From: a bacterium
Lineage (GTDB): Bacteria > Patescibacteriota > Minisyncoccia > Moranbacterales > UBA1568
Assembly (NCBI GenBank): GCA_021821305.1
Contig: JAKACP010000001.1
Location: 68,934 to 132,933, forward strand
Direction of reading: 5' to 3'
DNA length: 64,000 bases
The translations under genes were made by a program, and so were the position numbers. How positions within the stretch are numbered: the first letter of the stretch is position 1; every line of letters begins with the position of its first letter. The notes under the pieces were generated by a model. The model saw only the letters and a program-made list of their open reading frames with translations, did no database searches and was not told the DNA's origin. Positions 24,162 to 40,441 of the stretch are shown here, one piece after another.

Positions 24162-26954
24162 CTAACTCAGTCGATCTCCACGGCGTCCGGGTCTGGCCGG
24201 AGCCGCTTCCGGAGCGAGCGAGAAGACGAACCCGACCGTGAAGAGGAGGAGCGCCATGGTCGCGATCAGTTTGAACGAGAACAGGACCGACGCCGGGAGA
24301 TAGCTCGACACCGCAGCGAAGAACTTCTTCGGTCCAGATGCCATGATCGTGTCCGGCTCCATCACCTCGGCCTGCACCGACTTCGTGACGACCCTTTCAG
24401 CCGACGCCAGGGCCTCGACGCCCCAGATATCCCGGAGCGCGAATCGCTTCTCTTCCGGTTGGATTATCGATCCGGAGAATTGGATATTGTAGAGATCGCC
24501 GACGGTTTTGGCGACAGCCGGGGCATAGTCGATCTCGAACGGCACGGACTCGGTCACCGGCTCGCCGTCGACGCTCCATGACCGGGAAGAAAGTCCGCCG
24601 ACGAAAGACGGAATGAACTTCGCCTTCAGCTTGATGTTGCCGGTAACATACTTCTCGAAGGTATTCTCGCTGTAATCCGCGAACGTGGTCCCGTCGAGAG
24701 CGGTGTAGTCCCCGAGGTATTTCGGCCAGACTATCGTCGCGTCGGCGGATTCTATCGATACTTCCGGATCAACGACCTGGAACGTCCGCGACAGGGTCAC
24801 CGATTTCCCCGTAGCCGTATTCGTCGCGTTCACCTGGAGGGTATAGGTTTCCCCGGCACCCCCGGTGGCCGCGAAGAAGACACGATTCCCGGCGGCGCAT
24901 GCCCCGTCCCCTGATACGGCGTCCGTACAGGAAAGCGGTATGCCATTGAGCGTCCAGGAGAAGTCCGAAAGCCCGGTCGGGTCTATCTCGACGCCGACGA
25001 TCTCATCGTTCACGACGCGGCACGCCACTTTGTTGAGGTTTTCCATCGCCTCGCTTGCCGTCGAGGGATTCGGGTAGAACAGATTGCAGATCGGCGCCGC
25101 GGCCGACACGCGATACTTTCCCGTCACGGCATTAAGCGATGCCGAGGTCGAATAGGCCACGATCTTCTTGGTCGTGTTCGAGACACGGACGATGACGTCG
25201 CTTTTTCCGGTCCGTTCGACTCCGGAAGAGAAGTTTTCCTTGACGGTCGATCCGATCCGCAGATACAGGGGATCGGTTCCCAAAAGTCCGAGCGGCGTCA
25301 GGAAGGCGGTATCCATATTGAGCGCGACGAGAATCGAATCGAGGCCGTTCCCTGCGGACGTCTCCAACATCCCTCCCGTCACCAGATCCGCGGTGATATC
25401 CGTGAATCCGGTCACTGGATTATCGCTCACCTCCACCTGCCACGTATAGAGAAGCTCCGAAATCGGCCGTGAGGAATTGGTCACCGAAGCCGTCGCGGCT
25501 ATGACATCGCCCGTCTTTTCGGCGGTCTGATCGTTCGTCGGGTTATCCGGAGTGGCTGACACGGCTATGTCGAGTTTCTGCGATTTCCCCTGTCCGCCCT
25601 GCAGCGGATCGACGAGGTTTTTCGGAAGACAGGCATTGATATCGTCCTCGCTCATCGTGGTGGTCGGGATGCTCACGGAATAGCCGCGTATCGTCGTGCT
25701 ATAGCTCCCCTTGTTGATGACCGGACAGTCATTCTTCGAAAAGGCCCACATGATGGCATAGGATGAATCGTCGTGCTTGGTCGACATGATGGATGTCCCT
25801 TCGACCACGACACCGATCTGGTCCCCCGCCTGATAATTCCATTCGAATGTCTCCTGGCCGAGACCGACGACGTTGGCCTCATCCTTATTGCCGTTGTCGG
25901 CAGTGTCCGCATCATTCGGGTTGGTGCCCCAGAAGAATTCGTCACTAGCCCCGAACGTTCCGGCCGAATCACCGAACTGCAATCCGGAAGCGGATGTCCG
26001 AGGAAAGAGATGGACACACTTCTGGGACGTGCTCCCTCCGGTACAGCTGCTGAGCGAAGAGGTCAAGCTGTTGTACTGTGACTCGGTGAAGGTCGTGTTC
26101 GCGATGGAGAGATCGACGCACCGGGTCTGCATGGGCGAAGGGCACGAGGCCGTGGAACCGGAACAGCTCGGCGTCCCTGCTACATAGTATTCCGACGTGT
26201 TGCTGAACGTGTCATCGCTCGTCGGGTTGTTCGGATCTGACGTGATCGTACCGGGATTTATGGTGTCGGTGCCGTACACGCATGCGGCCGTATACCCGGC
26301 GGCGCAGGAGAACGACTGGGACGAAGAGGAGGATATGAGCTCGTAGAGGGTCCCGTTGTTCGAGTCGATCATGTAGCACCAGTCGTTCGTCGTATTCACC
26401 TGGTTGTTTCCTCCGTATTCGGCCCGGTATCCGTCCGAGTCCGTGTCGCTCCCGTAGTTGAAGCCGGCCTTGTCTGCGCCGTCGGTAGCGATTATCCGCG
26501 CGGCGGCGACCTTCCAGTCATTCACGGTGATACCGCCGGATCCATCGGCGTTGCAATAGGCGGGAGCGCCGCCAGCGCTCCCGAGATCGCATCCCTTGCG
26601 CTTGAGATACCAGGTGTAGTACAGCTGATCGCTCGGGTTCGAGAAAAGAATCGGGAACGCCCGGGCGATGATCTTCTCACCTTCCTTCGGATCGGTTGGG
26701 CTGAAGAAAATGTTCACTTCCGGAGGGGTTTTCTTGTTTCCGGAAACGTTGAACGCCTCGCTTATTTCCTGCACCGATCCCTGATTCACGTGATAACGCT
26801 GTTCGAGCTCCTTCGCGACCTGTGTCGCGGACGGGATCTTCGGCTTGCCTCCGAAAAGAGCGAGTGCCGGAACCGGGACCATCATCTGTACGATGACCGT
26901 GAGCGAGAGCGCGGATGAGGCGAATTTTTTCCATCTCATGTTCGTCGATTTCAT
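24162..26954 (-). CDS. large (~930 aa) secreted Cys-rich surface protein with a C-terminal TM anchor; last gene of the T4SS-like operon
   Basis: It has the signal peptide MKSTNMRWKKFASSALSLTVIVQMMVPVPALA, many Cys pairs and Ser/Thr/Gly/Asn-rich repeats. The C-terminal hydrophobic helix is followed by RPGRRGDRLS. Confidence 0.65.
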   Translation of the reverse strand: MKSTNMRWKKFASSALSLTVIVQMMVPVPALALFGGKPKIPSATQVAKELEQRYHVNQGSVQEISEAFNVSGNKKTPPEVNIFFSPTDPKEGEKIIARAFPILFSNPSDQLYYTWYLKRKGCDLGSAGGAPAYCNADGSGGITVNDWKVAAARIIATDGADKAGFNYGSDTDSDGYRAEYGGNNQVNTTNDWCYMIDSNNGTLYELISSSSSQSFSCAAGYTAACVYGTDTINPGTITSDPNNPTSDDTFSNTSEYYVAGTPSCSGSTASCPSPMQTRCVDLSIANTTFTESQYNSLTSSLSSCTGGSTSQKCVHLFPRTSASGLQFGDSAGTFGASDEFFWGTNPNDADTADNGNKDEANVVGLGQETFEWNYQAGDQIGVVVEGTSIMSTKHDDSSYAIMWAFSKNDCPVINKGSYSTTIRGYSVSIPTTTMSEDDINACLPKNLVDPLQGGQGKSQKLDIAVSATPDNPTNDQTAEKTGDVIAATASVTNSSRPISELLYTWQVEVSDNPVTGFTDITADLVTGGMLETSAGNGLDSILVALNMDTAFLTPLGLLGTDPLYLRIGSTVKENFSSGVERTGKSDVIVRVSNTTKKIVAYSTSASLNAVTGKYRVSAAAPICNLFYPNPSTASEAMENLNKVACRVVNDEIVGVEIDPTGLSDFSWTLNGIPLSCTDAVSGDGACAAGNRVFFAATGGAGETYTLQVNATNTATGKSVTLSRTFQVVDPEVSIESADATIVWPKYLGDYTALDGTTFADYSENTFEKYVTGNIKLKAKFIPSFVGGLSSRSWSVDGEPVTESVPFEIDYAPAVAKTVGDLYNIQFSGSIIQPEEKRFALRDIWGVEALASAERVVTKSVQAEVMEPDTIMASGPKKFFAAVSSYLPASVLFSFKLIATMALLLFTVGFVFSLAPEAAPARPGRRGDRLS

Positions 26955-26964
26955 AGGCTTAAGC

Positions 26965-27618
26965 TTATTTCGATATGAGAAAATACGCGTCGGCAAGGAA
27001 CAGGATGAGCCATCCGGATGCCCAGGAATAGTAGATGGAACGGGTGTACGAGGCGATGAATCCCGATGACAGGGCCGCGACCAGCAAGGGGGCGCTCTGC
27101 CAGAAAATTCCGTCGGTCACGAGGAGAAACGCCGAAAATATGGCGAATTGGAAAAATACAGCCGATAACCCGTATCGCCCGAGCCACAGAAGCTGTATGA
27201 ATCCGCGAAAGAACACCTCGTAGAGGAACGCGATCATGCCGACCGCGAACACCTCGTAGAGGAGAAATATCGGAAACGAGGACATCGCGAGCGAAGGGAG
27301 ATAGTATCCTTCGCCGACCGGATAATACCGGACCAGGAGATAGAGGACGGAGAGGGCCGAAACCGCCGCGAGCGGGACGGACAGCCACCCGAACCGTCGC
27401 ACGCTCGGACCGAGACCGATCGCGGAAACGGATTCCTTGCGGATCATCCGGACGTAGAGCACGGGAAGGATGCCGAGAAACGCGACGCCGAGGACGATCG
27501 ACTGGGTCACGCCGTTCAATTTCGCGTCGACCGGAAACAGATAGTAGGCCGAGAGCGCGAGCAGTACCGCCAACCCGTCGGCGAGGAACCGTTTCTTCGA
27601 GAGCATCATCGTAGTCAT
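26965..27618 (-). CDS. CPBP-family (CAAX protease/Abi) intramembrane metalloprotease
   Basis: The polytopic 217-aa product has the EVFFRGF motif (EExxxR-type motif 1) and further TM helices. Confidence 0.65.
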   Translation of the reverse strand: MTTMMLSKKRFLADGLAVLLALSAYYLFPVDAKLNGVTQSIVLGVAFLGILPVLYVRMIRKESVSAIGLGPSVRRFGWLSVPLAAVSALSVLYLLVRYYPVGEGYYLPSLAMSSFPIFLLYEVFAVGMIAFLYEVFFRGFIQLLWLGRYGLSAVFFQFAIFSAFLLVTDGIFWQSAPLLVAALSSGFIASYTRSIYYSWASGWLILFLADAYFLISK

Positions 27619-27658
27619 AGGAATCGTTCGTTTTTCTTTTCCGTATTATACACCGAAA

Positions 27659-28024
27659 TCAGGTTTTCCGCCTACTCCTCGCGGCTTCGGCCTGGGACAT
27701 GAACCGGATGGCGATCGCGGCCAACGTCTGGAGCGGGAGGAGATTAAGGACGATGAAGAGTCCCTCGATCATGCCGGTAAGCCCGAGGAGGACCCAGCGC
27801 TTGAGGAGCCGTTTGAATATCTCGCTCGCGTTTTGGGACATGATCTGCGGGTCGAGCATGACGATCATCATCTGTATCGATGTCGACATGAAGGCGAGCA
27901 CCGTCGTCACGCCCGGGAAATACCCCGTCGCGAAGTCGAGGATGTCGTCGAGCGCCCCGAACATGATGAGGAGCATCGAGATGATGAGGGAGGGCTGCTC
28001 CGGTTTCGGGACGTTGGCCGGCAT
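27659..28024 (-). CDS. small hypothetical membrane protein (121 aa, ~3 TM)
   Basis: It is an operon member between the VirB4-like ATPase gene and the CPBP gene. Confidence 0.5.
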   Translation of the reverse strand: MPANVPKPEQPSLIISMLLIMFGALDDILDFATGYFPGVTTVLAFMSTSIQMMIVMLDPQIMSQNASEIFKRLLKRWVLLGLTGMIEGLFIVLNLLPLQTLAAIAIRFMSQAEAARSRRKT

Positions 28025-28040
28025 ATCGTTGGTTCTCCGG

Positions 28041-30665
28041 TTATTTCCCCTCGTCGAAGTCCTTCTTCGCGGCGTCGATCTCGGCCAGCTGTCGCGGGTC
28101 GGTGGTGATGATCTGATCCTCGCTATACGACGCGATGACCTTGATCGCGACGTGCTTGGTGCCCGCGAAGAAGATGCCTTCGCCGACGTTGGATTCGAGG
28201 AGAAGGAACTTCTCGTGATCGGTGAGGTAGAACGTCTCGGCGATGAGGTCGACCGAGGCCGGCGACTGCTTGAGGAGGAGCTGCATCGACGAGTTCGTCA
28301 CGATCGGTTTGCCGTAGCGCGATGACATGAAGTCGGCGATATCCTGCGTGATCGTCGTGAGCCCCGTGTAGTATTTGCGACAGCGCTTCGCGATACCGAA
28401 GAGGAACGCGGCGGCATCCTCGTTCTGCATCATGATCCACGCCTCGTCGACGACCACCATGCGTCTGCGCATATCGGAACGCATCTCGTTCCAGATATAC
28501 TGGAGCACGACATACATCGCGATCGGGCGGAGCTCGTTCTCGAGGTCGCGGATATTGAACACGATGAGCTGCTTGTCCATCGAGATATTGGTCTGGTTGT
28601 TGAGAAATCCCCCGAACACGCCCTCGGTGTAGCGCTCGAGCCTCGCCGCGAGCGATTCGGCGCCCTCGAGGTTCCTCAACACCTCATAGAGATCCGCCAT
28701 CGTGGGGAACGACGTCGCGGTGAGCGTGGAGTAGTTCGTGGTCTCGGTGATGTCGCGGATGGCGTAGGTCTCGCGGATGGCACGGTCGAGGATGGAGTCC
28801 TCCTCCGGCGTCACGGCGCCGAGCATGAGATGGAGCAGTCCGATGAGGTTCGCGATATGGCTCCGGAGGACGCCCTCGTCGTCAGCGTCTTCCTTGCCCA
28901 CCTTGGGGAGGTCGAACGGGTTGAGGTGCGCCTGGGAGTTGAGCGCGATGCTCATGAACGTCCCGCCGACCGTCTCGCAGAGGTGTTTGTATTCGTTTTC
29001 CGGGTCGATGATGATGACGTTCGTCCCGAACATCATCGAACGGAGCACCTCGAGCTTGATCGTATAGCTTTTTCCGGCACCGGACTTCGCGAAGACCACC
29101 ATGTTAGCGTTCTCCATCTTGAACCGATCGAAGAGGACGAGCGAGTTGTTGTGCCGGTTGATGCCGTAAAGCACGCCGTCGTTCGACGAGAGATCGGAGG
29201 AGACGAACGGGAAGGTCGTCGAAAGCGGGGAGGTGTTGAGGTTGTTGGCGATATCGAGCGTGTCCATCGCGAGCGGCCGGGTCGCGACGAACCCCTGGTC
29301 CATGCGGAGCACGGCCGGCTTGGTGAACACGAGCTGGGCCTCGAGGATCGCCTCTATGTTCTTGGACAGCTCGTTGAGCGCGCTGTCGTCCTTGGCATAG
29401 ATCGTCATGTAGAGGCCGAAGCGGAAGAACTTCTCGGTTCCCTGCTGGAGCTTATCGCGGAGCTCCTCGATGTTCTGGAGCGCGGATTCGAGCACGGGGT
29501 CGCGTATCTTCCCCTCCTCCGCCTCGATGTTGATCTGCGACTGCACCTGCGTCGCGGCGCGGCGCAGGTCCTTGACGATGTCGCGCGTGTCGATCGGGTG
29601 GATGAAGAACGCGATATCCATCGGCGCATCCATGTTGATGATCGGCGAGAACCAGTTGGTGCCGAGATACTTCGGATACGCCACGATGAAATGCGTCCGG
29701 GAGGCGACTTCGCCGATCTGGATGGTGTTCGGGGTGAGCCGTATCGCCGGCGGCGCGATGAGGTCGCGAAGCGTCGCGACCCCCTTCTCATAGACCGCTT
29801 CGGTTTCGGAGATCGCCGATCCCGAGAAACGCGACGACTGCGGAGCGGCACCCGGGATGCTCGCGGAAGGCGCGGACTGAAAGTCTGCCAGATCGGCCGC
29901 GAAGGGACGATACTGGGACACGGGTGCGGATTCGGGTTCGACGGCCCGCTCCGGAGCGGAGGAGGGCTGTCTGAAGGCCGAAGGATCGATCGGGGCGAAC
30001 GTCTGGACCGGTGCGGCATCCAGCTGTGGCTCGGGTGTCGGCGCAGGCATCGGCTCCGGAGCTGGCGGGGTCGGAGCGGAATCCGGGACCGGATCAGGAA
30101 ACGGCCTCACGGGTGCGGGAGCATATTCCGGAACCGGTGTCGGTTGCGGCTCGGGTGTGATTTCGGGGACAGACGGAGGCTGTGGTGCTGGTGTGGACGC
30201 GGGTTCCGGCTCGGGTATGGGCTGTGGCACCGGTGTCGGTGTGGGCGTGCGCATCGGCTCCGGTTGCGGCGCGAGTGTCGGCTGTACGACTGGTTCGGCC
30301 ACAGGACGCGCGGCGACCGGAGGCACGTACGGAGCCGCGGACGACGGATACGGCTGCGACGGTCCGACGCCGATCAGGCTCGCCGAATGCGACGCCGGAT
30401 CGGTGAACGACGCGGGGGTAGAGTCGGCAGGAGTGATCGGCGAGTACGCCGGCTTGGCCATCGACGGAGAGACGTTCTGATATGCCTGGATGGGAAGCTG
30501 TCCGTTCGGGGCGGAGGCGAACGGCGACGGCGTCGGGGTCGCCGGCTGCGCGTTGACGAGCGGAGCGGAGGCGGCGGAAGAGGAATTTTTCTTGCCGAAA
30601 CCGAGCCAGCCGAGGAGCGACTTCTTCTTGTTGAGATCTTCCTTGAAAATGATCCTGTCCGTCAT
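28041..30665 (-). CDS. VirB4/TrsE/PrgJ-family T4SS ATPase with a ~330-aa Pro/Ala/Ser-rich low-complexity N-terminal region
   Basis: Walker A is VVFAKSGAGKSYT and Walker B is RMVVVDEAWIMM (the DEAW box typical of VirB4). The C-terminal region is conserved (LLLKQSPASVD). Confidence 0.8.
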   Translation of the reverse strand: MTDRIIFKEDLNKKKSLLGWLGFGKKNSSSAASAPLVNAQPATPTPSPFASAPNGQLPIQAYQNVSPSMAKPAYSPITPADSTPASFTDPASHSASLIGVGPSQPYPSSAAPYVPPVAARPVAEPVVQPTLAPQPEPMRTPTPTPVPQPIPEPEPASTPAPQPPSVPEITPEPQPTPVPEYAPAPVRPFPDPVPDSAPTPPAPEPMPAPTPEPQLDAAPVQTFAPIDPSAFRQPSSAPERAVEPESAPVSQYRPFAADLADFQSAPSASIPGAAPQSSRFSGSAISETEAVYEKGVATLRDLIAPPAIRLTPNTIQIGEVASRTHFIVAYPKYLGTNWFSPIINMDAPMDIAFFIHPIDTRDIVKDLRRAATQVQSQINIEAEEGKIRDPVLESALQNIEELRDKLQQGTEKFFRFGLYMTIYAKDDSALNELSKNIEAILEAQLVFTKPAVLRMDQGFVATRPLAMDTLDIANNLNTSPLSTTFPFVSSDLSSNDGVLYGINRHNNSLVLFDRFKMENANMVVFAKSGAGKSYTIKLEVLRSMMFGTNVIIIDPENEYKHLCETVGGTFMSIALNSQAHLNPFDLPKVGKEDADDEGVLRSHIANLIGLLHLMLGAVTPEEDSILDRAIRETYAIRDITETTNYSTLTATSFPTMADLYEVLRNLEGAESLAARLERYTEGVFGGFLNNQTNISMDKQLIVFNIRDLENELRPIAMYVVLQYIWNEMRSDMRRRMVVVDEAWIMMQNEDAAAFLFGIAKRCRKYYTGLTTITQDIADFMSSRYGKPIVTNSSMQLLLKQSPASVDLIAETFYLTDHEKFLLLESNVGEGIFFAGTKHVAIKVIASYSEDQIITTDPRQLAEIDAAKKDFDEGK

Positions 30666-30670
30666 AGGGG

Positions 30671-31360
30671 TCAGCGGTTATGGATCTCCATCTCATCCAC
30701 GTTGCGGACCACGGTCGTCGTGAAGAGCGACGGATTATAGGTGTTGTAGAGGAGCTCGATGATCTCCTCGGTGTTGAGCATCGTCGTCCGCACGCCGGTT
30801 CCCGACAGCGCGGCCGAAACCTGCTGTGCGCGCTGGAACAGCTGGCTCTTGTACGTCTCGAACAGCTCTCCGCGTCCGGACATGTGCTGTTTGGGGTTCA
30901 TGATGGCGCCGATTTTCCCGAACAATCCGCCCGACTGGGTCTCCGACGGAGCGAACGGGACGACGATATAGAAAAACTTCGACATGATGTTGGACACTTC
31001 GGTCAGGTTCTTGACGAAGTTCCGGTATTCGGAAATCTGGAAGCGCAAAAGCTCGTTCTCCTGCTTCTTCTCCTCCTCCTGGAGTTTCTCGAGATACGGC
31101 TCGATTCGGAACCGGCGCGAGTGCACGATGATCTGCACGGGAAAATCGAGCGAGTTCAGGAAGTTCTGATACTGCGCGATGATCGCATCCTGTTCCTCGC
31201 TCGACTTGAGATCGAAGTTGACCGAGGACGCGAGGAGCACCGCACGGAGACCCGAACTCTTGAGCACGATCACGCCGTCGCGGACCTCTTCCACGTCGAC
31301 ATACTTCTGGGTGCTCGCGGCCCCCGACGACACCTTCTTGTTTTTGTTGAGAAATTCCAC
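30671..31360 (-). CDS. hypothetical T4SS-associated protein (229 aa); resembles the N-terminal non-ATPase domain of VirB4-like proteins
   Basis: GVIVLKSSGLRAVLLASSVNFDLKSSEEQDAIIAQYQNFLNSLDFPVQIIVHSRR. It lies 5 nt upstream of the VirB4-like ORF. Confidence 0.45.
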   Translation of the reverse strand: MEFLNKNKKVSSGAASTQKYVDVEEVRDGVIVLKSSGLRAVLLASSVNFDLKSSEEQDAIIAQYQNFLNSLDFPVQIIVHSRRFRIEPYLEKLQEEEKKQENELLRFQISEYRNFVKNLTEVSNIMSKFFYIVVPFAPSETQSGGLFGKIGAIMNPKQHMSGRGELFETYKSQLFQRAQQVSAALSGTGVRTTMLNTEEIIELLYNTYNPSLFTTTVVRNVDEMEIHNR

Positions 31361-31397
31361 GCCGGTAAGATAAAATATGAACCTCGGATCGCGTGCG

Positions 31398-31796
31398 TCA
31401 CTTCCGGTCGATCATCTCCGCGAGGAGGCGGATATCTTCCGCGCTGACCGCCTTGGAGTGCGGCTGTGCCTCCGGCGTCTCGTTTCTTTTGGCCGTCGGT
31501 TTCCGGAGCATGCCGCCGACCGGGCGGTCCCACATCATCACCTTGGGTCGGAAGAGGAACAGGAAGGCGTTTCCGAAGTACGTGATGAGCGGTTGCCCGT
31601 TCGGGCGGTAGAAGGCGAGGGCGACGAAGAGCAGTACGACCGGGACCGCGGCGATGATCATGACCGCCCCGTCGAGGGCGAAGAAGATCGCGAGGAGCAC
31701 GCCCGTCATGCCGATCATCCAGAGCAGCTGCTTGACCGTGAGCGGCCCAGCGATCTTGTCCTCGACATCGATGAATTGGGGAACATTGAACATCAT
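31398..31796 (-). CDS. PrgI/VirB3-like small 2-TM protein
   Basis: The 132-aa product has two adjacent TM helices (LLWMIGMTGVLLAIFFAL / VMIIAAVPVVLLFVALAFY). It sits upstream of VirB4, as in Gram-positive T4SS loci. Confidence 0.45.
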   Translation of the reverse strand: MMFNVPQFIDVEDKIAGPLTVKQLLWMIGMTGVLLAIFFALDGAVMIIAAVPVVLLFVALAFYRPNGQPLITYFGNAFLFLFRPKVMMWDRPVGGMLRKPTAKRNETPEAQPHSKAVSAEDIRLLAEMIDRK

Positions 31797-31799
31797 ACG

Positions 31800-33074
31800 C
31801 TATTCGTTCTTGAGATCGACGATCCGCCCCATATCCTCGTCGCCGCTTTTCCCATGCAGGCTCACCGGACGGATCTGAAACGGATTCATCTTCTGCGCGG
31901 GACTCGGTCCGGCCGGAGCGGCGTCCTTCGACTTGTCGAAAAACGATTCCCCGGACGGGATGGTTCCTCCCGACTGCTGCTTGATCGCGAATTTCTGGGA
32001 ACCTCCCTGTTCCGATTGGAGCGTGTGGTTCGATGAGAACGAGAACTGGTCATCCTGTCCCGCGGCGGGTTTCTTTTCCGGAGTGGGCTTGGTCTCGAGG
32101 CTCGTGAAGTGCATGCCCTTGCCGATGCGGAAACCGCTCTCCTGCGGGGCCGCCTGCGGCGCGGCCGGAGCCTGTGGCGCGACGGGCACGGGCGGCACCG
32201 CCCGCTTCGGAGCCTGCGGAGGGGTGAACGGCTTGGGGGCCGGAGCCGCGACCGGCGTCGACTTGAACGCTTCGAGAAGCGACTTCGGCTTCCCTTCGGC
32301 GGAGATCTTCTTTCCCGGGGTCGGGGCCTTTGGCGCGGCCTGGCCGTCCGTCACCGAAAACGACGGGAAGACGATCTCCATCTTCCGTACATCGATATCG
32401 ACGGGGACATTGTCCTCGATCGAGCGCAGCACGAGGTTGAGGCGCTCGCGCTCCTCGGATGAGAGGGATTTGCAGTTCGGAGAATTGAAGAGGAACTTCG
32501 CCCGCAGGACGGGATCGTGATACCCGACGCCGAGCTCGTCGCGATAGGAGCGGAGCCAGTTGACGAGGCTCGGGCGCACCGGCTCGGGCTGGCTCTTGAT
32601 GCGGATCTTTTCGCGGCTCAATTGCTGTTCCGCAAGTCGCGCGTACTTGCCGAGCGCCGCGAGGAGCGGGAGCTTTTCCGAGGAGACCGGAGCGGATTCT
32701 TCCGGAGCGGAAACCGTCTCCGGATCGGGCTGTACGGTGAGGACGTTTTTTTCGATGAATTCCGCGAGCTTCGCCTTGTCGGCTCCGGTAAACGAGGCGA
32801 TCTCTTCCGCGGCGGCCGCCACGGTCTTCTTGTTGAAAAAAAGTTCGCGAATGATACCGCTCATCCGGACGATATCCGCGCCTTTCACGGAAAAATCCCC
32901 CGCGAGCGAGCGGAGTCTGAGCGGAAGCGCCGAAGACATAAGCTTCTTCCGCGTTTCCGGCGGAAGCGCCTTGTACGTGCCCCATGCGGCGCGAAGCGAT
33001 GCTTCGGCGGACTCACCCTCGAAGGCGAGCATGGGGTAGTACCGCGCGTCGATTTCCTCTTGTGATACGGTCAT
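31800..33074 (-). CDS. hypothetical protein (424 aa) with a Pro/Ala-rich central region
   Basis: It is an operon member with no recognised family. Confidence 0.45.
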   Translation of the reverse strand: MTVSQEEIDARYYPMLAFEGESAEASLRAAWGTYKALPPETRKKLMSSALPLRLRSLAGDFSVKGADIVRMSGIIRELFFNKKTVAAAAEEIASFTGADKAKLAEFIEKNVLTVQPDPETVSAPEESAPVSSEKLPLLAALGKYARLAEQQLSREKIRIKSQPEPVRPSLVNWLRSYRDELGVGYHDPVLRAKFLFNSPNCKSLSSEERERLNLVLRSIEDNVPVDIDVRKMEIVFPSFSVTDGQAAPKAPTPGKKISAEGKPKSLLEAFKSTPVAAPAPKPFTPPQAPKRAVPPVPVAPQAPAAPQAAPQESGFRIGKGMHFTSLETKPTPEKKPAAGQDDQFSFSSNHTLQSEQGGSQKFAIKQQSGGTIPSGESFFDKSKDAAPAGPSPAQKMNPFQIRPVSLHGKSGDEDMGRIVDLKNE

Positions 33075-33077
33075 ATT

Positions 33078-35177
33078 TTACGTCGTTGGGTTTTGTTTTT
33101 CGGCATCGCGCGCCTGCTTCGCCGCCGCTATGTTCGTGTCGGTCATGATCTTTCTTTCGTTCCGCGGAGCGGATTGCGATTTCAGGAGCACGTTCGCCCA
33201 CTTCCCTTCATGCTGTGCGTTCGACGGCGATTTCACGAGCTCGTCCATCACGCTCTGCGCCCATTTCGGACTCGTCGTCGCGCGGTTCTCGGCATAGGTC
33301 ATGAAGTGCTTGTCATCGAATATCTCACCTTGCTTGACGATATCAGAGGCGCCCATCTTGCCCAACACTTCGGTGTAGGCACCCTGGTACGCGTCGGCTT
33401 CGCTCGTCCCCGGGGCGCGCTTGCTGACCTGGTAATCGACGATGACTTTGGTCTTCCCTTCCTTGCGGAGCTTCCCGTCGAGGGACTTCTTGAGAACAGC
33501 GTTTTCACCGGTAGCCTTGAACGCATCCGTGTCGAATGAGGACATCGCCGTTTCGTACTGCTTGGCGTCGAGCTTGAGCGCGTCGCCGCCCGCCTTCTCT
33601 ATGAGGGTCGATATCTCCTTGGTGTTGTCGCCGAGCGCCTGGAGCGCGTTGACGAAATCGTTCGCGCCCGTGAGCGCCTTCCTGTCGGCGAGCACCATGG
33701 CGGCGCCTCCGGCGGCTATCGGATCCTTGAAGCTTCCGTCGGCTTTCCTGTTTTCGGCACCTATCTGCTTGAGGAGTTCCGAATTGCTCACGTTCCCCTT
33801 CTTGAATTCATCCGCCTGTTCATACGTACGCTTCCTCGCGAGCTCCTTCTCGGCATTGATGTATCCCTTCCGACCACCCTTGAAGAACCCGGCATATTTC
33901 GCCTCGCGCGCTTCCTCCTTCGCGGTACCGACACCCGGAACGGCGACGCCCGCGAATTTTCCTGTCTGCGCGAAATTCTTCCATCCCGCCTGCGCGCCCT
34001 TGACGGCGGCCGGCCCCTGCCCGAACGTGCCCGCGCGGAATGCGCCTCTCGCCGATTTCCGCCCGGCCCACTTGGAGAATTTCTGAGCACTGGCCCCAAC
34101 CTCTCTGGCTCCGGCAATCCCAGAGTTTTGCGCTACGATTATAGACATCCAAATCATCACGATCGGCGCTATGACAGCGACCATCGCCGCGAGATAGGTC
34201 CCGCCCCCCGTAGCTGATGAGTTATTCGCGATAGTGGTCGGGTTTCCAATGCCTCCAGGCCCTGTAAATCCTTCCAAGAACTTCAATGAGACAAGCATCA
34301 TGAGCATCGCTGCCGGCCCGAAAAAAGCATACTTCAGGAGGTTGTCCCACCACTTGGTCGCATAGGAACGGAATCCGGGTATCACCATCCCCGCGAATCC
34401 GACGGAGGAGAAGATGATGAGTACGACGAGCATGAGGGAGCGGATGAGGAACAGGATCGCGAGTACGAGCAAGGAAACACCGAACAGGAACATGAAAATG
34501 ATTCCTACGAGAAGCTTGGTGGTGATCTGACTATCGCCCTTGATATCCGAGACTTTAAAATTCTCCTTCCCAAGAATGAGTTTTTCAAGATTTGACGTTC
34601 CCAAAAACCGCTTCGTGACATTCTCCGCCTTCGCATCCGCCGGATTACTGAATATGCTCTCCATGAAAAAATACATGGGAACGTTGGCGACATCGATGAC
34701 GAATCGGGCTATAGGGAAACTGAAGTTGACGAGAAGCGCCATGAGAAGCAATTTCCCGAGCGACTTCTTGTAGTTGAAAGAGTCGATCTGGAATATCGTC
34801 GCGAAAGCGATGAAGAGGAGAGTGAGTATGAAAAAAAGGTTGAAGAAGTCCCGCACCATCTGCCAGAGCAAATAGATGGCCGGCATCGTGAACATCGTGT
34901 TGAACGCAACCGGATCCACGGTAAGCCCCAAAAGCATCGCCGACCATGTCACTGGGTAGGAAACAAGTGTAAAAACAGCGTAAAGAATTATATTGATGAC
35001 GTAGAAAAAAGCATCACCAGCGGTATCAGTAACGAAACTGAAAAGCCCGGCGTTAGCTTGGTGTATATCGAAAAAGAATACGAAAAAGAATATCGATAGA
35101 AAAAAAGCCGAAGAAAATTTATTTATTTTCGTTTTTCTTGAAATCATAGCGCGAAGCTTTCGGTCGAAATATACCAT
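33078..35177 (-). CDS. large polytopic membrane protein, VirB6/PrgH/ConG-like T4SS channel component candidate
   Basis: The 699-aa product has many TM helices and a Gly/Ala-rich C-terminal region. Its stop overlaps the next gene. Confidence 0.5.
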   Translation of the reverse strand: MVYFDRKLRAMISRKTKINKFSSAFFLSIFFFVFFFDIHQANAGLFSFVTDTAGDAFFYVINIILYAVFTLVSYPVTWSAMLLGLTVDPVAFNTMFTMPAIYLLWQMVRDFFNLFFILTLLFIAFATIFQIDSFNYKKSLGKLLLMALLVNFSFPIARFVIDVANVPMYFFMESIFSNPADAKAENVTKRFLGTSNLEKLILGKENFKVSDIKGDSQITTKLLVGIIFMFLFGVSLLVLAILFLIRSLMLVVLIIFSSVGFAGMVIPGFRSYATKWWDNLLKYAFFGPAAMLMMLVSLKFLEGFTGPGGIGNPTTIANNSSATGGGTYLAAMVAVIAPIVMIWMSIIVAQNSGIAGAREVGASAQKFSKWAGRKSARGAFRAGTFGQGPAAVKGAQAGWKNFAQTGKFAGVAVPGVGTAKEEAREAKYAGFFKGGRKGYINAEKELARKRTYEQADEFKKGNVSNSELLKQIGAENRKADGSFKDPIAAGGAAMVLADRKALTGANDFVNALQALGDNTKEISTLIEKAGGDALKLDAKQYETAMSSFDTDAFKATGENAVLKKSLDGKLRKEGKTKVIVDYQVSKRAPGTSEADAYQGAYTEVLGKMGASDIVKQGEIFDDKHFMTYAENRATTSPKWAQSVMDELVKSPSNAQHEGKWANVLLKSQSAPRNERKIMTDTNIAAAKQARDAEKQNPTT

Positions 35178-35243
35178 AAATTAAGAAAAATAAAAAACCC
35201 CTTAAAAAATAAGAGGTTTAAGATATGGCCGAAAAATTAACGG

Positions 35244-35681
35244 CTATATATAGTTCACTTCATTTCCGGTTGAGGGATCCCAGTAAGCCACCCTCCCGTT
35301 CGAAGATTGAATGTCTATATCCATCAAATCGGTCGAATCAAGATGTGCGACGACTTCTCTTGCCACCGGTTTGATTTCGATGAATAAGAGAACCTCCCCA
35401 TCATCACCGGAAACACGAAGGGTGTCAGCAGTGATCTCTTGCTTGAGAAAAGCCTGACGAATCGACTCACGCTGTTGTTCCGCTGCGTTACGAGTGGCAA
35501 AGTGCATATAAACGAATCGGGCACCCGGCTTCAAGACAAGCTTGACTTTCCCAGAATCGAATATTGACGATTCAACTTCCCCGCTTTGAGAAGCGGTTTT
35601 CTCGTCACCCAGACATCCGGAAAGGGAAACGGCCAGGAACAATGCGGCAAAGGCCGCAAATACCGATTTGAATGCTTTCAT
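35244..35681 (-). CDS. hypothetical lipoprotein
   Basis: The internal start MKAFKSVFAAFAALFLAVSLSGC gives a signal peptide plus lipobox. Confidence 0.5.
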   Translation of the reverse strand: MKAFKSVFAAFAALFLAVSLSGCLGDEKTASQSGEVESSIFDSGKVKLVLKPGARFVYMHFATRNAAEQQRESIRQAFLKQEITADTLRVSGDDGEVLLFIEIKPVAREVVAHLDSTDLMDIDIQSSNGRVAYWDPSTGNEVNYI

Positions 35682-36016
35682 GACGGTCTCCTTTCGAGAG
35701 ATTTGAGATCCGAACGGATCAGGGGAACTACGGTTTTTAAAGAAACAAAGGCTTATATCCACTGAACTCCTCTTTTGTGGAGTATCTCTTTATAGCAAAT
35801 TTTACGGATTTTGTCAATACTCCGACAAGTCGGAAAAGCACCATACTCCCTTATACAAGCCTCCCTGCCGTTTTCTTCCTATCCCAAGAAATGGTCCTTT
35901 CCCACCCCGGGCATGCATCCTCGTATCGAGGATGCCAGAACTCGTCGATCGGATGATTGGAGACAAGCTCAATGGTCTGATATTTGAGACAAGAGAGAGA
36001 AAATCAAAGAGCCCCT

Positions 36017-36517
36017 TTAGAGATAGAAGATCTTTACAAGCTTTGGCAAATCACCCTTTGTTTTCTCACCTTTTTCTATACTTTCAAAAAGCTCTTGTGG
36101 AGTCATCCAAAAATACTCCGTATAATCGTCTGGATTGTAGTTTGGAGCTTGATCTGTTCGAATTTCATAAACATTCATGAACGCCGCTACTCCATCTTTT
36201 TCAGGTGTAAGGTGTCCCAGAAGTTTCCATGGGGTTTTATCTGCATCAATATTGAGTTCTTCACTCAACTCTCTTTTAAAGGATACTTCGTAACTTTCCC
36301 CACTCTCAACATGCCCGCCCATACTCATATCTAAGCATGAGGGAAAAATCCGCTTATGAGCACCCCGGCGAGGCAGCCAAAGCTTGCCCTCAGAGTTGAC
36401 GAGAAAGGCATTCACCACACGAAAATTCGACAAGCCCTCGGCATAGACTTCCGAGCGAAGCTTCCTGCCGATCACCTCGTCTTTTTCGTTTACTAAATCG
36501 AGATATTCATCATTCAT
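36017..36517 (-). CDS. NUDIX hydrolase
   Basis: The Nudix box is GGHVESGESYEVSFKRELSEELNI. Confidence 0.8.
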   Translation of the reverse strand: MNDEYLDLVNEKDEVIGRKLRSEVYAEGLSNFRVVNAFLVNSEGKLWLPRRGAHKRIFPSCLDMSMGGHVESGESYEVSFKRELSEELNIDADKTPWKLLGHLTPEKDGVAAFMNVYEIRTDQAPNYNPDDYTEYFWMTPQELFESIEKGEKTKGDLPKLVKIFYL

Positions 36518-36599
36518 ACGCCTAAGGCAAAGTATAAAAGAAAAAAAAGAAGCTGTCCATCATGCGATGAACAGCCTTATAGCTAGTAGCGACCTAGTA

Positions 36600-37124
36600 C
36601 TAGCTGCTCCTGAACTTCTCAGGAACGTCGTCCCAAGTAGCGAAGAGAGCGAGAACCTCATACTCAACTGGCCCCTTTGGACCATCGGATGATCCTGTGT
36701 CGCCAATGTGTAGACCCATGAGTGCTTGAGCCATCGGCGCGTTATAGGCGACGCGTTGCTGTGGGACATCCGTTTCGCCGTAGCCAACGATTTCCCAGAC
36801 AAACTCGTCTTCTTCGCCACTCACCTTGTAGTAACGATTCAGAAGCACGATAGATCCGAGCTGCACTCTTGTCGTATTACGCTTGTCGAAAGCAAACACC
36901 TGAGCACTTGCAATGAGGGCATTGAGACTAGCCACTTCTTGGGCCTTCCTCTTTTCATCCTGTTCCAACCTGTTGAAGTAGGGATTGTCATGCCATGTAT
37001 CGCCAGTAGCCGTATACGCCGTAGCTTTTTCCATCCGGAGTGCTTCCAGCTCTTCGTTCAACATATTCAGCCTCCCATTGAGAAGATCCAGCCCCGTCTT
37101 GCTTACATAAATGACGTTTGCCAT
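36600..37124 (-). CDS. GreA/GreB-family transcription elongation factor-like protein
   Basis: It has an N-terminal coiled-coil region and a C-terminal FKBP-like domain (PMAQALMGLHIGD...GPVEYEVLAL). Confidence 0.55.
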   Translation of the reverse strand: MANVIYVSKTGLDLLNGRLNMLNEELEALRMEKATAYTATGDTWHDNPYFNRLEQDEKRKAQEVASLNALIASAQVFAFDKRNTTRVQLGSIVLLNRYYKVSGEEDEFVWEIVGYGETDVPQQRVAYNAPMAQALMGLHIGDTGSSDGPKGPVEYEVLALFATWDDVPEKFRSS

Positions 37125-37134
37125 TGCATACTCC

Positions 37135-37872
37135 TTAAATACCCATTTGGTAACGAAGATTCTCGATTTTTTCCACGATTTTCTGACGAGTCATTGCCGG
37201 AGACGGGAGCGTAGCTTGTTCAGACCCCAAGCTCCTTTCCGAAAGCAAGTCATTAGTCACCCAGCCGACATTTTCGTGGGTAATCACCAAAGTGGCAACA
37301 AACTGATCATTGGGCGTATCCACACGGTGCAACACCTCCCCCTCGATTGAATAGATGCTGCCTTCGGTAACACGCTCAGTCCCTATGCTGACGAGCTTGG
37401 TCTTGCCTCGGCTTTCTACATCGTAGTGCTCCTTGCTGCCACGAGCGTAATACCGGTAGTGGAAGTACTCTTCTCCCTCTTCGTCTGGAGTAGCAAACCG
37501 GTAGCTGTGATTGTCGGCGTATCCTACCAAAACTGCCGATGAGAAATCCCAACGATGATTATGGACATTCTGTCGAGGCCTCTTGGCATTCGGGATGGCA
37601 AGTGGATGCCACAAATGCAAGCGCATCTTCATTTTCGTCTCAGAATCCTGGAAGAGGACGATCTTGTCGAATCCATTGTCATGGGCATACGAATCCGTGT
37701 GATGGTGAGCCGAGTGCAGCGTGCCGTAGATGAACTCGTCAAGCATCGCTGCCAGAACGCTTGGCTGGACAAGCCGCTGCAGCTCTTCCGTAACCGATAC
37801 TGCTTTCGCTTTGCGCTCAAGAAGAGCTAGGCGTAGGAATCTCTCCTCCCACTCGGGGTTATAGAGTGTCAT
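37135..37872 (-). CDS. hypothetical protein (245 aa), His-rich, possible cupin-like fold
   Basis: It has the HLWHP...NVHNHRWDF motifs. No confident family is recognised. Confidence 0.45.
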   Translation of the reverse strand: MTLYNPEWEERFLRLALLERKAKAVSVTEELQRLVQPSVLAAMLDEFIYGTLHSAHHHTDSYAHDNGFDKIVLFQDSETKMKMRLHLWHPLAIPNAKRPRQNVHNHRWDFSSAVLVGYADNHSYRFATPDEEGEEYFHYRYYARGSKEHYDVESRGKTKLVSIGTERVTEGSIYSIEGEVLHRVDTPNDQFVATLVITHENVGWVTNDLLSERSLGSEQATLPSPAMTRQKIVEKIENLRYQMGI

Positions 37873-38420
37873 GATTTATCTCCTCTTAGATTGAGACTAG
37901 CCAAGATGAGGTCTGTGGTTTCCTCGACCGTGGCATCACTCGTGTCTATCACACTGTGGCCGAAAGTCTTGAAAATCCTGTCGGCCTGTCGTTGCAATGG
38001 CAGGTTCAGCTCGAGATCGTTTACATTCTTTCGTGAACGAAGTCGCTTCTTTCTCACCTCTTCCCTTGCTGTCAATATGAATGTGTAATCAGGCATGACA
38101 AGCTGGGTTATCTCGAAGAGTGACTGGATTTGAGTATCCATGGCTCCATGAAATGCAAAGGTTGAATAGATGTAGCGGTCGCACACGACACCAGAGGTTT
38201 TGAGTATTTCTCCGATCTTCTTCGAGTCGTGCTGTGTTGCCGCGCGATAGAAGAAGTAACGCGCCAGTGGCTCGACATCAGTATCGACAATGGAACGGGC
38301 TGATGAGAATAGACCGCCGGGACTCTTGTAGTACTGGTAGCCTAGCCTTTCTGCCAAACGCTTTCCGACCTCTGTTTTTCCCACTGCATCTACCCCTTCT
38401 ATACAGATGAAGATAGTCAT
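37869..38420 (-). CDS. thymidylate (dTMP) kinase-like P-loop kinase
   Basis: The P-loop is ICIEGVDAVGKTE and the DRY motif is VCDRYIYSTFAFHG. Confidence 0.6.
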   Translation of the reverse strand: MTIFICIEGVDAVGKTEVGKRLAERLGYQYYKSPGGLFSSARSIVDTDVEPLARYFFYRAATQHDSKKIGEILKTSGVVCDRYIYSTFAFHGAMDTQIQSLFEITQLVMPDYTFILTAREEVRKKRLRSRKNVNDLELNLPLQRQADRIFKTFGHSVIDTSDATVEETTDLILASLNLRGDKS

Positions 38421-38810
38421 GCTCTACTCCTTGTAGGGTTGCGAGTTGTTAAGTTACTAAACAAATTACAATATCATAATCCCTATTACTTGCCAATACC
38501 CCGTAATGTTTCAATTACCTTTGCATCACCGTGATACGCTGACCTGTTTAATGCGAAGCTATGGCCTATACAACGAATTCGAAGGCGCCGAAGGTGCGAT
38601 GGGAAGCGGTGAAGATAGTTTCAGTTGGAGGTGTGGCACAAAATAGAAGGGTAAAGTAAATATCCTTTCACCAGCAATGGTGAAACGCGTTTCGAGCCTT
38701 TGTGTGAAAGAAAAGGTTTTCTGATTTGACCGTTTCTTTGACCCAAACACGAAAGTTACTAGCTCCTTCAAGAGCTTAATGCAAACTTTATATGTCATTA
38801 CAAAATACGC

Positions 38811-38850
38811 CAGACACATAAAAACCCAGTCGCCAATGAAGGCAACTGGG
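38811..38850 (-). terminator. rho-independent terminator downstream of the GNAT gene
   Basis: On the minus strand: CCCAGTTGCCTTCATTGGCGACTGGG followed by TTTTTATG. Confidence 0.4.
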
Positions 38851-38870
38851 TAACTGAGGGAGCGATACAG

Positions 38871-39395
38871 TCATGTTCGATAAATCCGATAGGCAACTAT
38901 GGTGTGATCTTCCCCTCTGGCGTTCTGGGAGATGAATTCTTCTTCCTCCGAGATTCCGCCAAGCTTTTCCGGAATACGACGACTGGGAACATTGTCCTTA
39001 TGAACCGGATAGTATAGGTACTCATACTCGATATGCTCGTCGGCCCATCGCTTAAGAGCCGCGACGATCTCGAATCCGAAACCGTTGTTCCATGCTGATT
39101 CCTTGAGCCATAGCCCCGGCTCGGGTCGCGTCCAGAGGTGATGCAACCCCGTGCATCCGATGAATTCCTCGGAGTTTTTTGACACCGCGACAAATTGAAG
39201 TTCTCCCCCTCGCCCCATACTGTCCAGCGAACCGGAAATGAACGCATCGGTATCAGCTATGTTTCCGGTCGGCTGTGGCCAAGTATACCGCGCCACCCGA
39301 TCTGTGAATGCCTGAAAAATTTCTTGCCGGTATTTCGCAGAAATCGGCACCAGAAGGAGCCGCTCTGTCTCGATTGTCACACTCCGTAAATCCAT
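38871..39395 (-). CDS. GNAT-family N-acetyltransferase (RimJ/RimL-like)
   Basis: The start is at the internal MDLRSV. The acetyl-CoA-binding region is ELQFVAVSKNSEEFIGCTGL...FGFEIVAAL. Confidence 0.65.
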   Translation of the reverse strand: MDLRSVTIETERLLLVPISAKYRQEIFQAFTDRVARYTWPQPTGNIADTDAFISGSLDSMGRGGELQFVAVSKNSEEFIGCTGLHHLWTRPEPGLWLKESAWNNGFGFEIVAALKRWADEHIEYEYLYYPVHKDNVPSRRIPEKLGGISEEEEFISQNARGEDHTIVAYRIYRT

Positions 39396-39517
39396 GATTT
39401 CGTCCCTTATAACATTTTGAATGAGCTTGTCACCGGGCATAATTCCTAATGACAGACCATCTTATACCATAAATTCCATCATGTAAATAAGATCGGTCAG
39501 TTCAGTTGTCAAAGGAA

Positions 39518-39542
39518 AATGAAAAGGCGGCGTTTCCGCCGC
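39518..39542 (-). terminator. hairpin terminator; one of two identical 25-nt copies flanking the metallophosphoesterase gene
   Basis: On the minus strand: gcggcggaaacgccgcc followed by ttttcatt. Confidence 0.45.
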
Positions 39543-39676
39543 GTCTCCCAACTTCACTTGAGCCCTGTTATCCGAAGCAAGAAAGGACCTGCTCTTTTTT
39601 CTGCTTCTTTTCAAATGATGACGCTCGCGAAAAAGGCAGGCCCGGCTTTCAAAAAAGCGAAGGTTCAACAGTTCTC

Positions 39677-40441
39677 TCAGTGGCTTTCCAAATGACGTAA
39701 TACAACGCTCCCGTCGGAAAAAAAGTCAAAAAGAGACATCTTCCCCTCGTTCACCTTGTAAGCGATATTGCACGCGGAAACCGTACCGCGTGCTTTTTTT
39801 ATCCCCCGCGGACCATGATGAGCATGCCCGCTCAGGGCCAAGTGTGGATTTACTTGTTCGATAGCATCGCCCAGTCTCGAGCTGCCAAGAATGACATAGA
39901 GTTCTTTCGGTTCTCCTTCTATCGTTTCTTCGAAGGCCGCCCAGTGTGTAAGGGTGATCTTAAAATCAGGAGCCGCATTCTCCATTTGGTATAAGGCTGT
40001 TTTCAGTTTTTCCACTTCGCGATCTTCTTCTTCCACGAAAGACTTTGTCGCGCGCTCTCCACGGCTCACGATTCTGTGCGGGGCGAAGCCACCGCCATAC
40101 CCTTTCGCTCCGCCAATACCGACTTTCTTCCCATTCAGTTCATATTCGGCATACTCGCCATCAAGCACCTTGATAGACGGGTTCCCCAAAAGCATCTCTT
40201 TTATCCCATCCACATCATCGGCATCATAATCATGATTACCAAAGACCACGATTATCGGAACTTGTACACCGGAGACAAGATCAAGAAAGTGTTCCACTTC
40301 TTTCTTTTTCCCGTCATTCATATCGCCACCGATGATAAGCAGATCCGCAGTATCGTTTACATGATCAAAAAAGTCCTTTTGGATAGGATATTTGTTGACA
40401 TGAATGTCGCTTACAGCCGCAATGGAAAATACCGGTTTCAT
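39677..40441 (-). CDS. calcineurin-like metallophosphoesterase
   Basis: MPE motifs are present (VSDIHV, GGDMND, GNHDY, SGHAHH). Confidence 0.75.
   Translation of the reverse strand: MKPVFSIAAVSDIHVNKYPIQKDFFDHVNDTADLLIIGGDMNDGKKKEVEHFLDLVSGVQVPIIVVFGNHDYDADDVDGIKEMLLGNPSIKVLDGEYAEYELNGKKVGIGGAKGYGGGFAPHRIVSRGERATKSFVEEEDREVEKLKTALYQMENAAPDFKITLTHWAAFEETIEGEPKELYVILGSSRLGDAIEQVNPHLALSGHAHHGPRGIKKARGTVSACNIAYKVNEGKMSLFDFFSDGSVVLRHLESH

Follow-up and report, generated by a model that had tools for sequence, protein, structure and literature searches.

A probable chromosomal type IV secretion gene cluster of the Patescibacteria clade in a high-GC Moranbacteria-like genome

On the minus strand of the 64-kb stretch of contig JAKACP010000001.1 analysed here (the window, to whose positions all coordinates refer), a run of eight genes between 35177 and 24162 very probably encodes a chromosomal type IV secretion system (T4SS) of the Patescibacteria clade, derived from monoderm MPF-FATA conjugation machinery and carried by a high-GC Moranbacteria-like genome. 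All eight open reading frames (ORFs) are intact and co-directional, and from 35177 to 24162 the gaps between them are 3, 3, 37, 5, 16, 40 and 10 nt. An earlier note on this DNA had described a tightly packed minus-strand operon of eleven genes; the packing is borne out by these gaps and the sizes given for eight listed products (699, 424, 132, 229, 874, 121, 217 and ~930 aa) are right, but the interval holds eight genes and the count in the title was wrong. GC content at third codon positions (GC3) is 0.69–0.88 in all eight, which is the codon signature of the host, whose genome has ~59% GC. The same eight genes are present in public gene calls from independent assemblies, where the first starts at Met11 (33078–35147, 689 aa) and the last at 26954 (930 aa).

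The identification is carried above all by the 874-aa ATPase encoded at 28041–30665 (minus strand). It matches NF045971 (“VirB4-like conjugal transfer ATPase, CD1110 family”) with E = 8.8e-105 and 351.6 bits, the cut-off being 325, and in Pfam it matches PF19044 (P-loop_TraG, 1.5e-29) and AAA_10. The Walker A motif GAGKS occupies residues 529–533 and the DEAW box residues 740–743. HerA is matched at E = 0.02, and on its sequence the protein appears not to group with FtsK/HerA. Residues 1–285 form a low-complexity N-terminal extension of ~285 aa, rich in Pro, Ala, Ser and Thr, and a conserved core of ~590 aa follows. The extension is common only to the closest high-GC relatives, most homologues being ~620 aa long; a Pro-rich tail is also present in the 424-aa product of the same cluster. 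The core is 76–80% identical to many of the ~620-aa Moranbacteria proteins, with hundreds of columns invariant across metagenome-assembled genomes (MAGs), and such identity across many MAGs points to strong purifying selection on VirB4.

Is the N-terminal part of VirB4 then present elsewhere? The adjacent gene at 30671–31360 (minus strand) encodes a 229-aa protein, assigned through NCBIfam as TrsD/“TraC-like”, which would be the VirB4 N-terminal subdomain as a separate polypeptide. It matches model positions 87–233 of 894 in NF045975 (E = 1.1e-8), 4–119 of 752 in NF045971 (2.5e-6) and 18–136 in TIGR00929 (0.0026), while on the same models the 874-aa ATPase covers 293–893, 182–734 and 256–724 respectively. 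Since the two proteins cover complementary parts of the same VirB4 models, VirB4 appears to be genuinely split here, the 229-aa TrsD and the 874-aa ATPase being, on this evidence, complementary pieces of one VirB4. TrsD also matches the TrsD/TraD model NF041427 (3.9e-7, short of the 200 bits set as its curated cut-off), and its homologues carry a newer Pfam family, PF26593 “TraC-like”, on which no literature was found. The local Pfam copy gave no match to the 229-aa protein itself, BLASTP of it against the window VirB4 found nothing, and a profile of its family gave no matches to PDB sequences.

The 132-aa product of 31398–31796 (minus strand) is a small PrgI/VirB3-like membrane protein, matching PF12666 (PrgI) with E = 7.5e-12 and 46.1 bits, where the gathering score is 27, and TcpE with 1.9e-5. 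At the head of the cluster, 33078–35177 (minus strand) encodes a polytopic membrane protein of 699 aa as the longest ORF and 689 aa by the public calls. Its hydropathy indicates ~7 transmembrane (TM) helices in residues 1–350 and then a hydrophilic C-terminal region of 350 aa, a topology of the “extended VirB6” type with which the VirB6-like label is reasonable, if weakly supported: four of the 25 family members match TrbL/VirB6 PF04610 (best E 6.9e-4) and one matches TrbL_4 (5.1e-5), all below threshold, and the family profile gave only spurious coiled-coil matches in the PDB. In these components the apparatus is of the Gram-positive type, as the earlier note had proposed, with VirB4 above its cut-off and PrgI above its gathering score. 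The GAGKS and DEAW motifs it had read in a VirB4-family ATPase are there, the grouping with FtsK/HerA that it had named as a counter-indication is not seen, and its suggestion of a detached VirB4 N-terminal domain accords with a 229-aa protein that matches only N-terminal segments of VirB4 models together with the TrsD model.

Two conserved members of the cluster, both possibly undescribed, have no assigned family. The 424-aa protein (31800–33074, minus strand) is predicted to be soluble, having no TM segment, and its C-terminal half is Pro-rich; its family is poorly conserved (mean column identity 16%), with no Pfam match in 32 members and no NCBIfam match, and its gene sits between the VirB6-like gene and prgI wherever the order is kept. 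The 121-aa protein (27659–28024, minus strand) is a small polytopic membrane protein with 3–4 TM segments by hydropathy and conserved “KD-LD” and “E...P-NFLP” motifs, and no significant Pfam match was found in 28 family members.

How far this arrangement is shared was judged from 80 Patescibacteria loci around VirB4 relatives, whose ORFs were searched iteratively with the window proteins. Homologues were found of TrsD in 77 of them, always adjoining virB4, of PrgI in 70, of the VirB6-like protein in 58, of the 424-aa protein in 52, of the pilins described below in 40 and of the 121-aa protein in 34, in which, non-Moranbacteria lineages included, its gene lies directly 3′ of virB4. The order VirB6-like, 424-aa, PrgI, TrsD and VirB4, then usually the 121-aa gene and/or pilins, is kept across lineages (Moranii-, Pacei-, Doudna-, Azam-, Kaiser-, Magasanik- and Buchananbacteria, and Saccharimonadia), and where it is preserved in full the VirB6-like gene comes first; in the Moranbacteria type a CHAP gene precedes the core, and the 121-aa, CPBP-like, 930-aa and pilin genes follow it. 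By named homologues, VirB4, TrsD and the 930-aa protein are closest to Candidatus Moranbacteria/Moraniibacteriota, and the nearest loci are also relatively GC-rich (54–58%), so that attribution to the candidate phyla radiation (CPR; Patescibacteria) is right despite the high GC. The chromosomal setting in a CPR bacterium that the earlier note had envisaged is upheld, with housekeeping genes on both flanks, and the comparison with CPR genomes that it had pointed to gives a core gene order recurring, by component, in 52–77 of the 80 loci. In passing, at least eight public MAG records with a patescibacterial T4SS bear the names “uncultured Bdellovibrionales”, “Micavibrio” or “Gammaproteobacteria” in their titles; as the T4SS loci themselves plainly resemble those of Moranbacteria/Patescibacteria, these labels are probably wrong.

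Two further components, both cluster-adjacent in relatives, had been overlooked in the earlier component list, which otherwise covered the cluster itself. One, at 40591–41694 (minus strand), is a peptidoglycan hydrolase with two LysM domains and a CHAP domain (LysM 2.2e-20 and CHAP 6.2e-19 in Pfam; PcsB-type CHAP domain 1e-20 in NCBIfam), a predicted functional analogue of the VirB1/PrgK type. In 10 relatives a co-oriented copy precedes the VirB6-like gene by 98–1286 nt; here ~5.4 kb lie between the two. The other is an array of five VirB2-like pilin genes within 14593–17032, all on the minus strand (16580–17032, 16289–16567, 15857–16237, 15350–15745 and 14593–~15336, the last carrying two pilin domains). 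Against PF18895 (T4SS_pilin, gathering score 26.6) their products score 80.6 (two stretches), 44.9, 45.1, 40.3 and 32.2 bits, and the 92-aa pilin also matches TrbC/VirB2 (5.5e-7). Since in relatives the pilin genes come immediately after the 930-aa gene or virB4, and here are ~7 kb away, a rearrangement in the lineage of the window is indicated. The intervening ~7 kb holds genes for a solute-binding protein, a methyltransferase, DUF4446, IF-2 and the CCA-adding enzyme, and three tRNA genes (Ser 19054, Pro 23234, Leu 24015). A 389-aa membrane protein without family match, encoded beside the pilins (13361–14530, plus strand), was considered as a part of the system and set aside, jackhmmer having found no counterpart in any of the 80 related loci.

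What separates the hydrolase gene from the VirB6-like gene is a low-GC island of ~5.6 kb (~34900–40550), with ~42–50% GC against ~59–61% around it and GC3 of 0.42–0.59 in its genes against 0.75–0.88 in their neighbours. It encodes a putative lipoprotein (35244–35762), NUDIX and GreA-like proteins, a 245-aa protein without assignment, dTMP kinase, an 86-aa ORF, a GNAT protein and a metallophosphoesterase, and an independent ENA assembly has the same junction. Because the distance from CHAP to VirB6-like gene is a mere 98–1286 nt in relatives, the island has the look of DNA gained horizontally and inserted among the T4SS genes. In the VirB6-like gene itself, GC3 is island-like (0.47) over the first ~100 codons (34878–35177) and host-like (0.67–0.84) over the remainder, and the island boundary may fall inside that gene, implying a replaced 5′ end. 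A terminator-like hairpin lies at 35219–35195, just upstream of the VirB6-like start. Another, a 28-nt terminator-like hairpin (GCGGCGGAAACGCCGC) with a T-run, occurs at 39515–39542 and 40478–40505 in copies 96% identical that flank the metallophosphoesterase gene, one copy being the terminator after the CHAP gene.

The wider surroundings are those of a chromosome. The flanks hold genes for a class II aminoacyl-tRNA synthetase, RNase Y, iPGM, ClpP, trigger factor, PPase, NusA, IF-2 and the CCA-adding enzyme, and further for sigma-70, PcrA, a Mur ligase, FemAB, RuvA, HolA, PolA and TsaE. Domain scans covered all GC3-supported ORFs of the window, and in none of these was a Pfam domain found of a relaxase, of a VirD4/TcpA-type coupling protein or of VirB11, as the earlier note had stated; nor do flanking direct repeats bracket the cluster. 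One plus-strand gene (59397–62474) does encode a member of the T2SSE superfamily, which includes VirB11, and its 1025-aa product, with MshEN and two T2SSE ATPase stretches, is by its domains of the PilB/GspE type, belonging to type IV pili or type II secretion, and not a VirB11; in appearance it is two PilB/PilT-type ATPases in one fused chain, which would presumably serve type IV pili. Given the host-like GC3, the housekeeping genes on both sides and the lack of relaxase, type IV coupling protein (T4CP) and VirB11 in the 64 kb, the cluster appears to be chromosomal and non-mobile, and by the synteny above it is vertically conserved; the case that had been made against a classical conjugative element holds on these three grounds of missing relaxase and coupling domains, composition and flanks. 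Elsewhere in the window, a gene for a small GIY-YIG nuclease (50232–50543, minus strand, GC3 0.46), maybe a mobile homing-type endonuclease, lies between holA and the RuvA-region genes.

The cluster ends with two genes of narrower distribution. The first (26965–27618, minus strand) encodes a 217-aa membrane protein with 5–6 TM segments, related to the CPBP (Rce1-like) family: PF02517 is matched by 12 of 20 family members (best 4.5e-9), while for the window protein Pfam gives nothing at E ≤ 1 and NCBIfam a single match, to the Synerg-CTERM sorting protease MrtS (NF040589, 4.4e-5; 23.8 bits, the cut-off being 130). CPBP glutamic intramembrane proteases are defined by the motifs EExxxR, FxxxH and HxxxN/D, and it was on these that the family was examined. 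The first Glu of EExxxR is missing in all 20 members, the second Glu and the Arg each being kept in 17; the motif-2 His is replaced by Gln in 18; the motif-3 His never occurs, Asp being present in 18; and the window protein is devoid of His. Because the canonical catalytic residues are lost family-wide, the 217-aa protein is probably a non-proteolytic protein of CPBP fold. In the earlier label of CPBP intramembrane protease the last word is accordingly probably wrong, while the first has some support from the 12 relatives.

The second gene of the pair (24162–26954, minus strand) encodes a secreted, tail-anchored Ig-like surface protein of 930 aa (944 aa as the longest ORF, to 26996), identical to the public protein P0241 and with 349 homologues, of which the named ones are all from Moranbacteria; no Pfam domain was found in it or them. 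The size and anchor in its earlier description as a Cys-rich anchored surface protein of ~930 aa stand, while “Cys-rich” amounts to 16 Cys in 930 aa, 13 of which are invariant and one nearly invariant among 41 homologues. An N-terminal signal/TM segment is followed by a disulfide-rich head with acidic motifs (DxDxDG-like and “TNPNDPDTAxNGNKDEANV”), and the C-terminus, strikingly conserved, consists of GPKKFxAAxSxYxPxSxLFxF[KR], a TM helix, PE and a basic tail. No LPXTG motif was found in the protein, the TM-helix tail serving as anchor instead. Structure predictions, made on homologue sequences, gave an AlphaFold2 model (pLDDT 77.5) that is mostly beta-sandwich with about four Ig-like domains, and Foldseek matched it to tandem Ig-like adhesion domains, including the PrgB Ig-like domain 8beg_B (8e-7, TM-score ~0.1) and the Ca-stabilised RTX adhesin 4p99; such matches to a model would signify generic similarity of fold and are no evidence of homology. 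By sequence no PrgB-type adhesin was detected.

Among the 58 loci with at least 5 kb of sequence downstream of VirB4, 16 carry both the CPBP-like and the 930-aa gene, none the CPBP-like gene alone and two a 930-aa-like gene alone. The two are adjacent in 16 of 16 (gaps –70 to 48 nt) and always in the same orientation, directly after the virB4 or 121-aa gene and often directly before the pilin genes. The pair is Moranbacteria-restricted and possibly undescribed. From the tandem Ig-like domains with their adhesin matches, the N-terminal signal/TM segment, the C-terminal anchor and the adjacency of the CPBP-like gene, we infer for the 930-aa protein an adhesin-like role at the surface, with its anchor recognised by the neighbouring pseudo-CPBP protein.

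Could the locus be no more than the remnant of a Gram-positive-type integrative conjugative element (ICE), decayed or cryptic, that has lost its relaxase and coupling protein and is under no selection for a cellular role? Its VirB4 does belong with the ATPases of ICEs and conjugative elements (NF045971 CD1110, NF045975), a foreign low-GC block lies inside the locus, and a tyrosine recombinase gene, the sole recombinase gene, stands at 42073–43014 beside the hydrolase gene. However, that recombinase is host-like in GC3 (0.89) and from its domains is read as Xer-like, the cluster itself has host-like GC3, every ORF is intact, the flanks are housekeeping genes, and a gene order kept across Patescibacteria classes with an ATPase core so nearly identical in many MAGs is incompatible with decay; the homologous system is moreover essential in Southlakia (PMC10633639). 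On composition, synteny and context the ICE hypothesis is rejected, and we give it hardly any probability. Less easily put aside, though still on the unlikely side, is a machine for DNA or RNA import like the H. pylori ComB or archaeal Ced systems, supplying nucleotides to an organism unable to make them, in place of effector export. The lack of relaxase and coupling protein speaks against conjugation of the export type, acquisition of nucleotides via the T4SS has been proposed (PMC11665869), feeding on host RNA has been linked to T4SS-like tubes in a 2026 preprint (bioRxiv 10.64898/2026.06.21.733656), and in the class ABY1 the T4SS co-localises with comF/recG/radA (PMC12102498). VirB4 also resembles CedB, the ATPase of the Ced DNA importer, yet at 2.4e-15 this match is far under the cut-off and much weaker than those to conjugative VirB4 families; the 64-kb window holds no competence genes, and direct evidence of import is lacking for any Patescibacteria. 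Import is in any case a proposal about direction and substrate within the Patescibacteria-clade T4SS reading, and does not give the locus a different identity.

A further alternative concerns only the end of the cluster, where the CPBP-like and 930-aa proteins, perhaps with the 121-aa protein, might form an independent module for sorting and anchoring a surface protein, the CPBP-like enzyme processing the C-terminal signal of its neighbour as MrtS-type proteases do. The 217-aa protein has MrtS for its only NCBIfam match, the 930-aa C-terminus does have a conserved motif, TM helix and basic tail, and the genes are strictly adjacent and confined to one lineage (16 of the 58 loci with enough sequence). 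Against this, the MrtS match is far below its cut-off; with the first Glu gone in every member, Gln for the motif-2 His in 18 of 20 and no motif-3 His, proteolytic sorting is unlikely; and the constant orientation and position of the pair, after virB4 or the 121-aa gene and often right before the pilins, place it inside the T4SS gene set. We rate an independent module as improbable. Its converse, rated scarcely higher and still doubtful, is an undescribed accessory module of the T4SS itself, in which a dead CPBP-fold protein would act as membrane receptor or chaperone for the anchor of a Ca-binding Ig-like 930-aa protein, the missing adhesin or surface part, and in which the pair, with the 424-aa and 121-aa proteins, would replace unfound VirB8, adhesin or coupling functions.

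If the locus is, as we think very probable, a Patescibacteria-clade T4SS, how might it work? By the R388 structure and the papers cited, TrsD and PrgI would hold the VirB4 hexamer to a membrane platform formed by the VirB6-like protein, the LysM-CHAP hydrolase would open the cell wall, and the VirB2-like pilins would form a short pilus or tube reaching the host cell that carries the epibiont. Since no relaxase or coupling protein accompanies the cluster, the machine would move macromolecules between epibiont and host, whether by effector export or by import of nucleic acid or nutrients, and not conjugative DNA. In Moranbacteria the non-catalytic CPBP-like protein may partner with the C-terminal anchor of the 930-aa protein, which as adhesin or surface-proximal component of the system might mediate or stabilise contact.

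Several points weigh against this picture. The VirB6 assignment is weak, the window copy of the 699-aa protein matching nothing in Pfam or NCBIfam; no VirB8-like component was identified; and the ~0.83-Mb genome could encode a coupling protein or relaxase outside the window. For TrsD, the fold matches to the VirB4 N-domain are consistent though below normal significance, and hhalign of the TrsD family profile against the patescibacterial VirB4 profile gave a probability of 0.2%, not significant, a result to be expected after a clean split, if VirB4 here has lost exactly that subdomain. With the hydrolase ~5.4 kb and the pilins ~7 kb from the cluster, co-regulation is not evident. The pair of terminal genes is linked to the T4SS only by conserved adjacency within one order, which could be due to shared descent, and the function of Patescibacteria T4SSs has itself been called “completely unknown”, with effector delivery, nucleic-acid uptake and nucleotide acquisition as proposed roles (PMC11665869).

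Such systems have been described in recent years. Southlakia epibionticum cannot grow as an epibiont without the cluster SEML1_0006–0019, which has pilins and no recognisable coupling protein or relaxase (Wang et al. 2023, PMC10633639). In a survey of the phylum (Quiñonero-Coronel et al. 2025, PMC12102498) the VirB4 proteins of Patescibacteria formed a monophyletic clade with affinity to MPF-FATA, and TrsD, a remote homologue of the VirB4 N-terminus, was the most abundant partner (1,664 cases beside virB4). The same survey reports PrgI/VirB3, VirB6 and CHAP/LysM VirB1 analogues, the latter with virB4 especially in Paceibacteria, and arrays of 2–11 VirB2-like pilins; VirB8 is rare there, PrgB-type adhesins are absent, relaxases nearly so, and distant VirD4-like (T4CP) genes are common in the genomes (PMC12102498). 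A 2025 review treats the patescibacterial systems as newcomers to the T4SS superfamily and has VirB2-like pilins absent from Gram-positive systems (PMC12857230). The patescibacterial T4SS, with TrsD, pilin arrays and missing relaxase, is thus already published, and the earlier view that the composition here matched no described canonical architecture does not survive, since TrsD, PrgI, VirB6, VirB1, pilin arrays and the lack of relaxase are all in print (PMC10633639, PMC12102498, PMC12857230); solely the CPBP-like/930-aa pair was not found there, the terms CPBP, CAAX, Rce1 and PF02517 being absent from the main text and part of the supplements of PMC12102498.

What the window adds is therefore no new principle; it is a clean and complete instance, found in a Moranbacteria lineage of high GC and with lineage-specific accessory genes, of the one T4SS that its owner is known to need for growth (PMC10633639, PMC11665869, PMC12857230). 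The complementary coverage of the same models by TrsD and VirB4 is a simple demonstration of a split VirB4. As testable candidates for missing parts it offers the 424-aa and 121-aa proteins, which are phylum-wide, and the pseudo-CPBP and 930-aa proteins, which are lineage-specific.

Comparison with known systems sets these features in proportion. With H. pylori ComB, archaeal Ced and Bordetella Ptl the locus has in common the lack of a dedicated relaxase or coupling protein, and with Ced a weak resemblance of VirB4, but component set and VirB4 subfamily differ. To PrgB-type adhesins the 930-aa protein is alike in its generic Ig-like fold only, with neither LPXTG nor any Pfam domain. The MrtS Synerg-CTERM system likewise has a polytopic CPBP-like protein encoded beside a protein with C-terminal TM anchor and basic tail; however, the 217-aa protein is mostly without the catalytic residues, and its partner has a C-terminal region longer and far more conserved than a typical sorting signal. 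Another parallel for the 217-aa protein may be S. aureus SpdC/LyrA, a non-catalytic CPBP partner. Monoderm MPF-FATA systems (pGO1/pSK41 trs, C. difficile CTn2 CD1110, pCF10 prg) share the VirB4, TrsD and PrgI families, a CHAP hydrolase and the lack of outer-membrane core components, whereas the window has no relaxase, T4CP or element boundaries, and has VirB2-like pilins and vertical conservation across the phylum. The nearest likeness is to the chromosomal T4SS of the Patescibacteria clade. From it the window copy differs in the Pro-rich VirB4 extension of ~285 aa, in the displacement of hydrolase and pilins and a position not beside dnaA/dnaN within the window, and in the CPBP-like/930-aa pair, not found in the text and part of the supplements of PMC12102498; with it are shared an MPF-FATA-like VirB4 with TrsD, PrgI/VirB3, a putative VirB6-like protein, the CHAP/LysM hydrolase, the PF18895 pilin array and, going by the window scan, a chromosomal location with no relaxase and no coupling protein nearby.

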